Positions 50,134-53,452 of a DNA stretch of 64,000 nt are shown here, piece after piece (positions within the stretch are counted from its first letter, which is position 1; every line of letters starts with the position of its first letter). This stretch comes from a virus (Duplodnaviria > Caudoviricetes). Location of the stretch: positions 32,001 to 96,000 of the IMG/VR virus record IMGVR_UViG_3300032038_009890. One strand, given 5' to 3'. The position numbers were made by a program, and so were the translations under genes. The notes under the pieces were generated by a model. It made no database searches and was not told where the DNA came from. It saw only the letters and a list, made by a program, of their open reading frames with translations.

Positions 50134-50514
50134 TTATTTATAAGTCTCTCTATAGGACTCATCGTAAAGTGGGTCAGTAACATGATCGTATGTGCTTAAA
50201 AGCGTATTGATCATAAGATCGATTACAAAATTATCGTATTTCTTCTTCGGATATTCGTCATAATACTGATAAAACTTATCTTCAAGATCAGCTTCACTCA
50301 TATTAGCGACCTCATCGTTATTTACGTTATCCTTAAGGAACTGGCAGAAAATCTGTACCACTTCGTCAATTCTATCTCTGATCTCAAAAGTAATATCATC
50401 AATATGCTTATGATATTTTTTGAGATAAGTCTGCCAAACAGGGTCTTTCTCAATAGCTTCCGCATGGTTATCAATATAATCCATCAGTTCTTGATTGCTA
50501 AAATACGCTTTCAT
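50134..50514 (-). CDS. Hypothetical protein
   Basis: TAATG coupling to the ligase C-half gene. Confidence 0.6.
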   Translation of the reverse strand: MKAYFSNQELMDYIDNHAEAIEKDPVWQTYLKKYHKHIDDITFEIRDRIDEVVQIFCQFLKDNVNNDEVANMSEADLEDKFYQYYDEYPKKKYDNFVIDLMINTLLSTYDHVTDPLYDESYRETYK

Positions 50515-52349
50515 TATTTTTCCCCTATCATGTGCAAGAAATCAACCTCAGAAATAATTGGAATACCAAGGTCCTGCGCCTTTTTATTCTTACTAGATGT
50601 GCTATTGATATCATTATTTATCAGGTAGCTTGTATTTTTACTTACTGAACTAGCCACCTTTCCTCCGAGAGCAGTAATCTTATTTACATACATATCACGG
50701 TTCCCACCATTAAGCTTTCCAGTGATTACAAAATTTTTGCCTACCAAAGAAACTCCCCGTAAATCCATTTCGCTAGAAGAATCAGTAGGATTAGTGGAGA
50801 GAATATCACCAGAAGTGCTATTGCCACCAATCCGAAGACAAGAAACAAGAGAACAAAGCTGATCACTATTATCACGGAACCAATTGTGGATATTATCGCT
50901 GATAACTCTTCCAAATCCATCTATCTCCTTAAAATCATATTTATTAGTTGCCGCCTTATCGAATGCCTCCCATTTCTTAAATTTATTGGCTAGGACTTTA
51001 CTCTGGGCAGGACCAATGCCGGGGATACTTAAAGCACAAATAAAATGCGCCAGATCAACATCACGGGACTTTTCGATGGCAGAGAGAAGCTTGTCAATTG
51101 ATCTTTTACCAAATCCAGGAACGGTCTCCAACCTTGCGCGATGGTCTTTTAAATTGTAGATGTCACTAAATCTATTGATGATTCCAAGGTTAATGAATAC
51201 CTCTAGATTCTTCTCGGAAAGCCCGTCAATATCCATGCCACGCTTGGAGACGAAGTGGACAAATCTTCCAAGGAGCTTGCCTGAGCAGTTGGGATTAGTA
51301 CAATAAAGCACTTCGCTATCATCTGTAAATTTTATAATTGTATTTTCGCCGCAATTTGGGCATTTTCGAGGTATATTAAAATAATCCAACATTTCTTCTT
51401 CATTCCTTATCAAGTATTCAGTGGTTTCAAGTTGCAGATCTTCTAATTTTAATAAATCTCTATGTTTATAAGGTATTCTTATGATCGGAATATTATTACG
51501 CAAACAATATAATGTTTTATATAGATCGTTATATCTGATCTTTTTATATTTTCGTTCAGCATCATCTTCGTCTGCCGCAAAATATAATTCCTGTTTAAAA
51601 TGTTGTCTGCCATCAAATTCTATTATATATTGTTTATTAACATAAAAATCAAAATATCCATAATATCCACTATCAGGGAATCTACATCCTTCAAAATATT
51701 TGCCCGTTTCATATTCTATATTCTTTTCATTAAATATTTCTTTTATTTTCTTTTCTCCATAAGACCCCTATAAACATCCACATGATATTTTTTTTGATTG
51801 TAATAAATCGTCACTTGTTGCTTCAATTTTTCTTCCACATTCGCATAAACAAAGCCACGTTGGTCTACAATTCTCATCTTGTTTTATTCTTTTTATTACT
51901 TTTAGCATTCCAAATGTTTGTCCAGTCAAATCAAATGCTCGGTTTTTGTTATTTTTTATAAGTATTTCTTTAGAAAGGCATCCACAAGAAGTCGTATTTC
52001 CACTTTTCAATCTTTCACTTGAAACATATATTTCATTATGTTCGTCACAACTACACCTACACTTCCATATCATTGTCCTTCTCTTATCATCTCTTCCTGC
52101 AAGATTTAAAACAGTTAATCTACCAAATACCTATCCAGTAAGATCCTCGTAACTATGATTTAAACATCCACATGATTTTTTTCTTCCACTCTTTAATTCA
52201 TATGTGCAAGCATAAACAATTGAATTTTCACTACCGCAATCACATATACATTTCCATATTATTTGTCCATCTTTACTTCTATCATTTGTTTTTTCTATTA
52301 CAGTTAGATTGCCAAATTTCTATCCAATTAAATTATATCCTTTTGCCAT
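50514..52349 (-). CDS. Fusion of a Vsr/DUF559-like endonuclease (three CxCxC repeats) and the C-terminal half of NAD-dependent DNA ligase (Zn finger, HhH, BRCT), 611 aa; 3 TAG
   Basis: ATG 52349 overlaps the N-half stop (TAATG) with a GAGGAG SD. One frame with TAG at 52322, 52133 and 51770. GEKKIKE...FDFY...IEFDGRQH...NNIPIIRIPY, then IPRKCPNCG...YCTNPNC, MDIDGLSEK, LSIPGIG, FVITGKL...VASSVSKNT. Confidence 0.85.
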
Positions 52350-53452
52350 TATATCCAAATCTCCTCATTATTACAATCTATCGACTTTACAATTTTAGGA
52401 ATAATCATATTCATTTTTGCCACCCATATTTTTTGCCCGTAATATGGTTTTTCTCCCAACGTTTTTTTCATAATACTTATATTCGATAATGAAGCTTTAT
52501 TAATTTCTGTATTATTTATATAAACAGTATCAAATAACGCTACTGGAGTAATCTGCCCATTTTTTCCTACTTGCCAAATAATATCACGAAGCTTAGTTTC
52601 ATAGGTTTCGTCTTCATATTTATATGCGATTGCATTCTTAAAGAATCTATCGGTTCTGCCAAGAGACTTTCCATAAGAAATATCATTATATTTAATAACA
52701 ACCCCGTCAATTGGAAACCCTTTTACATGAGCTTCTTCTTTAAATACTTTAAGTATATCTTCCCAATTAAAACCTTCATTACCATAAGGCATTTTAAATC
52801 TTACGGTTTCAAAACCTAATAAAGTAGATTCTAGCAAATTACCAAATAAAGTACTTTTTGAACCGCCTTCAATAACGTCCCATGCATAAAACCTTAATCT
52901 ACGTTGCGCTGATATTTGCGGGTCTAACTGATTAAGAGAGCCAGCAGCCAAATTACGAGGGTTGCTAAATTCACCTTTTGTATTTATAGCATCAAAATCA
53001 TCTTTAAGAATTACACACTCACCATCAATAACATATTTTCCAGTACGGTCAATGTATTTTGGCAGATTTAGAAAGCTGTTAGCATGGAATAATACATCAT
53101 TTCCTTCAATCCCATTGCCACGAGTCTCTAAACGTGAGAGAATTCCATCAATATAGGTTGCCGAACAAGTTAATCCGTCCGCCTTGTACATTAAGACAAT
53201 ATCTTTATCTCCGGCAAATTTCTTAATTTCTTCTATGCTATGTACCTTATCCAACGATAGCATCAAATGTTCGTGCTTAATCGTAGGAATAGAAGCCACA
53301 GGTTTAGAGCCAACGTAGTCGATATAACCAAGTTTTGTTGCTTGGTCTACTAATCTATCATACTCAGCGTCTGTGAGATGGCTTTTTCCAGTTGAATAGT
53401 AAAGTTCTTTTGCTACTCTAATCTTCTCAGTTAATTCTTCTAGTTTTGTCAT
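52349..53452 (-). CDS. ligA: NAD-dependent DNA ligase, N-terminal half (adenylation and OB domains)
   Basis: [18 protein letters not shown] adenylation motif, [37 protein letters not shown]; stops (TAA) just before the Zn finger. Confidence 0.92.

Follow-up and report, generated by a model that had tools for sequence, protein, structure and literature searches.

A phage NAD-dependent DNA ligase gene probably split at its OB/zinc-finger linker by a mobile, amber-containing homing endonuclease gene

The stretch of DNA analysed here (the window, 64,000 nucleotides of IMG/VR record IMGVR_UViG_3300032038_009890) covers bases 32001-96000 of a single 217-kb phage contig rated 98% complete. On its minus strand, at 50514-53452, lies the gene of an NAD-dependent DNA ligase (ligA) in two pieces, here called LigN and LigC, with a homing endonuclease gene (HEG) between them. 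Under the standard code the region reads as an open reading frame (ORF) of 367 amino acids (52349-53452) and another of 329 amino acids, with fragments in between. When TAG is read as a sense codon, a single frame of 611 codons runs from the ATG at 52349 to the stop at 50514-50516. The initial annotation had described this arrangement from the bare sequence, and all that it claimed for the locus (ORFs, Shine-Dalgarno (SD) sequence, TAG codons, domains and internal ATG) was recovered at the same positions when re-derived. Retranslation with TAG as sense, combined with a profile scan, likewise gave one 611-codon frame encoding a nuclease and then zinc finger, HhH and BRCT domains. The features are, in positions of the window:

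52349-53452, minus strand: N-terminal half of ligA (LigN), 367 amino acids, stop codon TAA at 52349-52351; adenylation domain (PF01653, 1.4e-40) and OB fold (PF03120, 2.2e-16)
52361-52366, minus strand: GAGGAG Shine-Dalgarno sequence of the HEG, inside the last LigN codons and 11 nucleotides upstream of the ATG
51393-52349, minus strand: HEG section of the long frame, 319 codons (protein P0001), without a stop of its own
52320-52322, minus strand: in-frame TAG, codon 10 of the HEG, context LIG-TAG-KFG
52131-52133, minus strand: in-frame TAG, codon 73, context LTG-TAG-VFG
51768-51770, minus strand: in-frame TAG, codon 194, at the border of the DNA-binding repeats and the nuclease domain
51771-52334, minus strand: three CxCxC / GxxFGxLTV repeats (residues about 6-193), predicted to bind DNA, each modelled as a small beta unit
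51396-51770, minus strand: Vsr-like (EDxHD-type) nuclease domain, residues 194-318
51404-51408, minus strand: AAGGA SD-like motif, 11 nucleotides upstream of an internal ATG (51392-51390)
50514-51392, minus strand: C-terminal half of ligA (LigC), 292 amino acids from the ATG at 51392; C4 zinc finger, HhH and BRCT domains; stop codon at 50514-50516
50514-52349, minus strand: full frame of HEG plus LigC, 611 codons, open only with TAG as sense

The ATG of the HEG (52349-52347) shares one base with the stop of LigN, as TAATG. An AGGAG-type motif precedes this ATG in all five fused alleles that we compared, with a spacing of about 20 nucleotides in one of them (L035; relative contigs and loci carry L-numbers, proteins P-numbers, and WIN denotes the allele of the window). 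LigN contains the catalytic lysine of the KxDG motif (K90), and LigC matches phrog_3498, a ligase profile of 256 residues, over profile positions 4-252. KxDG and the four cysteines of the zinc finger are invariant among the split alleles compared, and no second ligase gene was found in the genome. The junction from HEG to LigC in the 611-codon frame reads ...YLIRNEEEMLDYFNIPR, and the peptide spanning the fusion would be NEEEMLDYFNIPR.

Syntenic relatives, in which ligA follows gyrA, have an uninterrupted ligA of 652-658 amino acids counted from the first methionine. LigN and LigC together align end to end with the uninterrupted LigA proteins of L003-L005 and P0008-P0015, and this comparison places the break in the linker between the OB domain and the zinc finger. 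When the nuclease domain together with LigC served as query in a protein search, matches covered 96-99% of the query at 51-55% identity, and the same layout was found on five other metagenomic contigs: L034, L035, L036, L037 and the degenerate L038. On L034-L037 the stop of LigN (367-384 amino acids) is TAA, and the frame of the HEG then continues uninterrupted into LigC. Because the layout recurs in five independent assemblies it is not an assembly chimera, an outcome that the initial annotation had named as one that would overturn its reading. The allele at L038:913-2309 is decayed: the repeats and the TAG at codon 10 are kept, the nuclease core is deleted, and what is left of the HEG C-terminus still reads in frame into LigC, itself intact. 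The split therefore seems to outlast the HEG. In a more distant relative, L043, the same point is occupied by a homologous HEG in another frame, which ends at its own TGA stop 8 nucleotides into the LigC frame. In a 313-kb phage (L039/L040:2332-4852) the same linker holds an HNH_3/NUMOD4 endonuclease that is unrelated to this HEG, and the stops and starts there overlap. The OB/zinc-finger linker is thus a recurrent landing site for different HEG families.

The 319 codons of the insert match PHROG families of HNH and homing endonucleases and of an intron-encoded nuclease (phrog_374 at 1.6e-48, and 559, 9084 and 7140). Pfam gave only noise at E<=10, and neither the sequence nor a profile of the HEG found anything meaningful among PDB sequences. 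An AlphaFold model built on seven homologues (mean pLDDT 78) consists of a small beta unit for each of the three CxCxC repeats, followed by a C-terminal domain (residues 194-318). With VIA-align this domain matched the Vsr endonuclease (1cw0_A; Z 10.2, root mean square deviation (rmsd) 3.3 over 116 residues), the catalytic domain of I-Bth0305I (3r3p_B; Z 8.9, rmsd 2.9 over 92 residues, 24% identity) and 3hrl_A (Z 7.4). Foldseek gave a probability of 0.96-0.98 for the same Vsr-like entries; the whole multi-domain model gave weak E-values only. Residues D234, E244, D246, H250, D275 and K278 are invariant in the seven homologues, with no sequence-level PDB match through which they could be mapped onto I-Bth0305I or Vsr. 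The initial annotation had called the nuclease Vsr-like, and the modelled structure, through its matches to 1cw0_A and 3r3p_B, supports this as far as the fold is concerned. The CxCxC/GxxFGxLTV module is common to many phage endonucleases of the HNH, AP2 and GIY-YIG types. Homologous HEGs that combine CxCxC repeats with a Vsr-like domain also occur free-standing beside ligase genes: at L004:7016-7906 directly downstream of an intact ligA, and at L130:2326-3237 directly upstream of a ligase of the ATP-dependent type, the stop of the HEG abutting the ATG of the ligase. This clade of HEGs seemingly favours ligase loci.

The three parts of the locus do not share one history. Between WIN and L037 pairwise identity is 42% for LigN, 70% for the HEG and 52% for LigC, and the three parts group differently. 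When LigN of WIN is compared with those of L035 and L037, the last 90 residues or so are 57-87% identical as against 17-47% further upstream. The adenylation domains of the LigN proteins match one of two uninterrupted lineages (P0008/P0013 or P0009/P0015), mostly at 60-97% per 30 residues; over the final 60 residues, inside the OB domain, the match drops to 23-43%. Synonymous divergence (dS) is 0.12-1.65 in the HEG as against 0.87 to >3 in the flanking halves; for the pair L034-L036 the values are 0.12 versus 0.87 and 1.46, and for WIN-L037 0.98 versus 1.94 and 2.63. The ratio of nonsynonymous to synonymous divergence (dN/dS) is 0.14-0.31 in the HEG and 0.08-0.45 in the ligase halves, indicating purifying selection on all three parts. 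By the step in identity, the low dS of the HEG and the incongruent groupings, the HEG behaves as a mobile element and bears the signature of homing with co-conversion of the flanking exon. A cassette made up of the OB segment, the HEG and the start of LigC has entered at least two ligase lineages, and the HEG is younger than the ligase sequence around it. The suggestion that insertion of a HEG made this gene in pieces therefore agrees with the uninterrupted relatives, with the negative searches for an intron or intein described below and with the signature of mobility.

How could LigC be made? Every split allele retains the methionine of the motif M[LM]xYF[EN]IP; uninterrupted ligases lack this methionine. 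It is preceded at 4-11 nucleotides, in five of five fused alleles, by an SD-like motif formed by differing codons (AAGGA, GAGG, GAGGA); in this genome the background frequency of such motifs is 11% for in-frame internal ATGs and 31% for first ATGs. In L043, where the HEG ends at its own stop in another frame, the LigC ORF begins with the equivalent methionine, which has AAAGGAAAG upstream. From these comparisons we conclude that LigC would be translated from the ATG at 51392, a start that had been put forward as possible in the initial annotation.

Ligases divided at this point are known. The two-subunit NAD-dependent ligase of T5-type phages (subunits A and B of Tequintavirus) has the same split, between the end of the OB domain (...VIPxIV...) and the zinc finger (...IPxxCPxCG), and its N-terminal piece comprises the adenylation and OB domains and its C-terminal piece the zinc finger, HhH and BRCT domains, as is the case here. 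In the T5-like phage ESCO30 (L001) subunit A ends in ...VIPCIVERVYD and subunit B starts with MMKIEIPTQCPSCG. PDB entries 9HU3 and 9I5I contain a two-chain enzyme, 'DNA ligase (NAD(+))' of 339 amino acids and 'DNA ligase subunit B' of 248 amino acids, whose chain ends match the break described here; 9hu3_A covers LigN residues 10-359 and 9hu3_B covers LigC from residue 6. LigN is about 32% identical to the T5-like subunit A, and since closer relatives are uninterrupted, the present split is probably independent of the T5 lineage. The roughly 200 nucleotides between the halves at the ESCO30 locus contain no annotated gene, no plus-strand ORF of at least 40 amino acids and no endonuclease. Amber codons and a fusion frame, both present here, are absent there.

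A model of the complex of LigN and LigC scored 0.63, the best control reaching 0.00; a mark of 0.63 was reached by 58 of 80 solved complexes and by 2 of 110 mismatched pairs. At least 68% of contacts are common to the runs, and the pLDDT of the partner is at least 77. In the modelled interface OB residues 290-339 face LigC residues 2-46, including the LDYF head that is specific to split alleles. This score may do no more than echo the structures of full-length LigA that have already been solved. Taking the model together with the T5 and PDB enzymes split at the same point and with the purifying selection on both halves, we infer that the subunits assemble into an active ligase; the two-subunit enzyme proposed in the initial annotation is very probable by this analogy.

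The amber codons have to be seen against the rest of the genome. Over the whole contig, the stops that divide two long in-frame ORFs are 53 TAG versus 29 TGA and 31 TAA, and nearly all of the 53 TAGs lie in plus-strand genes at 4-51 kb and 180-210 kb. In the window, genes of the plus-strand late block (1-23449) have up to 23 TAGs each, with ORFs listed under TAG as glutamine, and the minus-strand early block (23811-64000) is free of TAG apart from a few nuclease genes and some doubtful ORFs. The densest gene of the window is that of an endolysin with a CHAP domain (15288-16880, plus strand) with 12 in-frame TAGs. The corresponding columns hold glutamine in its homologues (for example 94 of 117, 101 of 117 and 101 of 120 sequences) against a glutamine background of 3.9%. 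By this criterion TAG evidently stands for glutamine in the late genes. Aragorn found no suppressor tRNA in the raw sequence, and a loose threshold with introns allowed gave only noise. A group I intron (Rfam RF00028) is present at genome positions 177865-178054, with 53.5 bits against a gathering score of 50. Excision of 197 nucleotides (genome positions 177881-178077; L041:1582-1778), as an intron in the anticodon loop of a tRNA, leaves a tRNA of 88 nucleotides with the anticodon CUA. The block pattern of TAG, the glutamine columns and this intron-split tRNA(CUA) mark the phage as amber-recoded block by block, like those that Borges et al. described (bioRxiv 10.1101/2021.08.26.457843).

TAG codons in the early block were found as follows:

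51393-52349, minus strand: HEG section of the ligase locus, three TAGs
32772-33599, minus strand: LAGLIDADG-type endonuclease, TAG as codon 15
59722-60408, minus strand: ERCC4-type nuclease, a possible case, TAG as codon 11 if the start is MKFNKGYTDT
30752, 38540, 42220, 44759, 55046 and 35031-35543, minus strand: doubtful TAG-bearing ORFs, the last with four TAGs

The TAGs of these doubtful ORFs fall in 5' extensions ahead of likely starts, or the ORFs have no family match. TAG in the early block thus seems to be restricted to nuclease genes.

With in-frame TAGs at codons 10, 73 and 194 the HEG is not translatable under the standard code, as the initial annotation had pointed out. Codon 10 is TAG in six of six alleles inserted in ligA and CAA in the free-standing homologue of L004. 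The TAG at codon 73 of WIN corresponds to CAG or CAA (glutamine) in four of the five other alleles and to AAA (lysine) in L035. At codon 194, four of five full alleles have TAG. The HEG of L043 contains five TAGs, the first at codon 11, which is the adjacent column, and its early TAG looks like one of independent origin. Every inserted allele has a TAG within its first 7-11 codons. In the early neighbourhoods of WIN, L035, L036 and L037 (7-11 kb each) TAG is found in confident coding sequence only in nuclease genes; the sole other credible TAG-bearing ORF in the flanks of L035, L036 and L037 is an HNH-like gene adjacent to the locus in L037, the remainder being short ORFs that overlap called genes. 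By its distribution, and by analogy with recoded genes elsewhere, TAG would fit a code switch that keeps the nuclease untranslated early in infection.

The explanation that we consider probable is that a mobile free-standing HEG fractured the only ligase gene of the phage at the OB/zinc-finger linker, that the halves work as two subunits and that the nuclease is delayed by its amber codons. The 5' end of the HEG would supply the TAA stop of LigN together with the SD sequence and ATG of the HEG itself, and its 3' end the SD-like motif and the initiator methionine of LigC. LigN and LigC would be translated separately from an early transcript and would join through the OB/zinc-finger interface to give a two-subunit NAD-dependent ligase like the T5-type enzyme. 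The HEG would be made only when the amber-suppressor tRNA of the phage is active, so that the selfish nuclease is deferred to the late, recoded phase. As long as TAG is a stop no HEG product is expected, because ribosomes would halt at codon 10. Because the HEG of this clade has no stop, the late product that we infer is a HEG-LigC fusion of 611 amino acids. The initial annotation saw in this fusion a 'cut-and-seal' enzyme tied to the code switch. This reading is unlikely: at the same site L043 carries an unfused homologous HEG that ends in its own stop, and the fusion most likely reflects a tolerated loss of the stop seen in L043 and not a designed enzyme. At L037:3986-3988 there is a TAG at the junction itself (FLI-TAG-SEDKM), one codon before the position at which a free-standing homologue stops. 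With the standard code this TAG would terminate the HEG, and recoded translation would continue through it.

It is very improbable that RNA or protein splicing takes the insert out, as an intron, an intein or a split intein, or that frameshifting or read-through bypasses it, to give a contiguous LigA. Self-splicing introns are frequent in phage genes, this genome itself holds one of group I, and a ligase gene fractured with a split intein was found by Dassa et al. 2009 (PMC2677866). Here, however, no group I or group II intron or other Rfam family was detected in the whole window at gathering thresholds, and nothing relevant at E<=10 over 51200-52500, a negative result that is meaningful because the same library finds the group I intron elsewhere in the genome. 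Alignment with the free-standing homologue of L004 (7016-7906) spans the insert completely, the homologue ending in ...ETSEFVLK-stop where the insert reads ...ETTEYLIRNEEE-M, so that HEG coding sequence fills the insert and none is left for a ribozyme. Pfam detected no Hint or intein domain at the locus, where the N-terminal junction is a stop plus a change of frame. In LigN 8 residues follow the OB domain, and in LigC 10 precede the first cysteine of the zinc finger, too few for the halves of a split intein. The absence of intein termini and of an intron scaffold, noted in the initial annotation, stands after these searches. The frame relation of LigN and HEG varies from a 1-base overlap (TAATG) in WIN through the same frame behind TAA in L034, L036 and L037 to an 11-nucleotide gap in L035. 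No recoding site is conserved, and the differences in frame from allele to allele speak against a frameshift or read-through that joins LigN to the insert. A target-site duplication (NNEEIWI versus NEEEMLDYF) was also considered; a repeat search found no flanking repeat, and the idea was dropped because the tail of LigN mostly encodes the SD sequence and spacer of the HEG (AAAGGAGATTTGTATATAA-ATG in relatives). Just as improbable is that the ligase is a dead gene or the layout an assembly artefact. The host's own LigA could meet the need of the phage and one relative, L038, has a decayed HEG, but both halves of the ligase are under purifying selection with their catalytic and zinc-binding residues kept, and both are intact even in L038. 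As for an artefact, the layout is seen in six independent assemblies, and an identical protein cluster (P0002) is present on a 223-kb contig.

The fractured, amber-delayed arrangement set out above does not account equally well for everything. Eleven nucleotides is a long SD spacing for AAGGA. The variable arm of the tRNA(CUA) is long, unlike what would be expected for a glutamine acceptor, and this leaves the amino-acid identity of the tRNA uncertain. The conserved TAG at codon 10 is suggestive, no more, given that, where residues agree, different lineages use the same HEG codon in 55-73% of cases (94% in the near-identical pair L034-L036) and that the codon is the same across all alleles at two other glutamine columns as well. 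Despite a dS of about 1, the linker of 4-5 codons between HEG and LigC is free of TAA and TGA in five alleles, which leaves room for selection that keeps the fusion; the recurrence of the in-frame junction is not independent evidence, because the inserted alleles descend from one cassette. The TAGs may regulate nothing, being late-gene codon usage carried among amber-recoded phages, or the HEG may be transcribed late anyway. We regard this as possible though clearly the less likely view. The high codon identity and the equal conservation of CAA and CAG at other glutamine columns speak for it, as does the presence of TAGs in HEGs of the late block. What it leaves unexplained is that four independent early neighbourhoods and a 40-kb early block confine confident TAGs to nuclease genes, that the TAG of every inserted allele falls in the first 7-11 codons, in a different column in L043, and that the free-standing L004 homologue has CAA at codon 10. 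More doubtful is the view that the HEG-LigC fusion is itself the selected product, LigC aiming or strengthening the endonuclease, or cutting being coupled to sealing, in the late phase. Its frame is open in five alleles despite 38-49% divergence of the HEG plus LigC protein among four distinct lineages, the sole stop-like codon in the linker is the TAG of L037, and by our own rough estimate neutral stops would be expected at a dS of about 1. On the other hand, the HEG of L043 at the same site stops in another frame, the free-standing homologues of L004 and L009 stop at the same point, the C-half retains a conserved methionine and SD motif, and a junction that came with one ancestral mobile cassette was inherited and not re-invented; chance alone would give an in-frame junction in one case out of three. 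Any selected function for the fusion seems unlikely to a similar degree, and slightly more so the version in which the amber-gated fusion is a real late protein under selection whose LigC half delivers the HEG to DNA or to LigN, or is taken from the ligase. If a late fusion were selected, homing and nick-sealing would be switched together by the genetic code.

The reading of the locus as a ligase gene fractured by a HEG has clear precedents, and the statement in the initial annotation that no equivalent had been described did not hold: two-subunit T5-like ligases (9HU3/9I5I), fractured genes and a delayed HEG have all been reported. Dassa et al. 2009 (PMC2677866) described 'fractured genes' in which free-standing Vsr-like HEGs supply a stop upstream and a methionine downstream. 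The present locus resembles these, especially an intein-less SbcD-like locus, in having a Vsr-like HEG between the halves of a DNA-metabolism gene and short tails at the break. Most of the cases in PMC2677866 involve split inteins, including the ligase, which is Felix01-like, whereas the ligase here is intein-less. Their HEGs have a stop of their own and overlap the downstream start by 6-69 bp with their 3' ends, whereas those of WIN and L034-L037 are in frame without a stop; L043, with its own stop and an overlap of 8 nucleotides, agrees with the published pattern. In Aeromonas phage Aeh1 (Crona et al. 2011, PMC3045599) the halves encoded by nrdA-a and nrdA-b, on either side of mobE, are made separately, reassemble and are active. 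There, too, a free-standing HEG splits the gene of an essential enzyme and sequences made by the insertion form tails at the break. The Aeh1 case concerns an HEG of the HNH family and a ribonucleotide reductase, with assembly and activity demonstrated and with neither recoding nor fusion. I-Bth0305I (PDB 3R3P; Taylor et al. 2011, PMC3239194) is an EDxHD homing endonuclease encoded in a group I intron in recA. It shares with our HEG a Vsr-like catalytic fold (92 of 98 residues aligned), a phage origin and a DNA-metabolism gene as target; unlike it, the HEG here is free-standing, has three N-terminal CxCxC repeats and has no sequence-level match in the PDB. Borges et al. (bioRxiv 10.1101/2021.08.26.457843) proposed that recoded stops delay late genes, among them an intron-borne HEG inside an early gene of 'Agate' phages, which recode TGA. 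In both cases a HEG in an early gene has in-frame recoded stops and the genome is divided into standard-code and recoded blocks. Their example concerns TGA (tryptophan) and an intron HEG, ours TAG (glutamine) and a free-standing HEG whose frame continues into the second half of the host gene. The departures from fractured-gene precedents are the intein-less NAD-dependent ligase as target, the stop-less in-frame HEG and the conserved ambers in an otherwise TAG-free early operon.

The locus shows a selfish nuclease that breaks an essential replication gene and yet is tolerated. Because the cassette brings a stop, a start and a seemingly matched OB/zinc-finger interface, a ligase that has just been invaded would function immediately in two-subunit form. 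The locus may also be a second, independent case, with another stop codon and another kind of HEG, of a code switch that silences nucleases until late. It is compact, and at least six natural variants of it exist, with fused, unfused and decayed forms among them. Annotation under the standard code yields a truncated ligase and fragments, and the use of code 15 together with recognition of the split improves annotation of such phages.

Some further observations concern the surroundings. Two other HEGs lie in the late block of the window, at 14378-15331 and 18155-19450 on the plus strand, both of the GIY-YIG type with three TAGs each; the former also holds one CxCxC module and the latter also matches a family annotated as HNH. 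Another CxCxC module adjoins a tRNA cluster at genome positions 122681-122944. The closest named homologues of the endolysin come from Eubacteriales and Blautia, a hint of a host among gut Clostridia.

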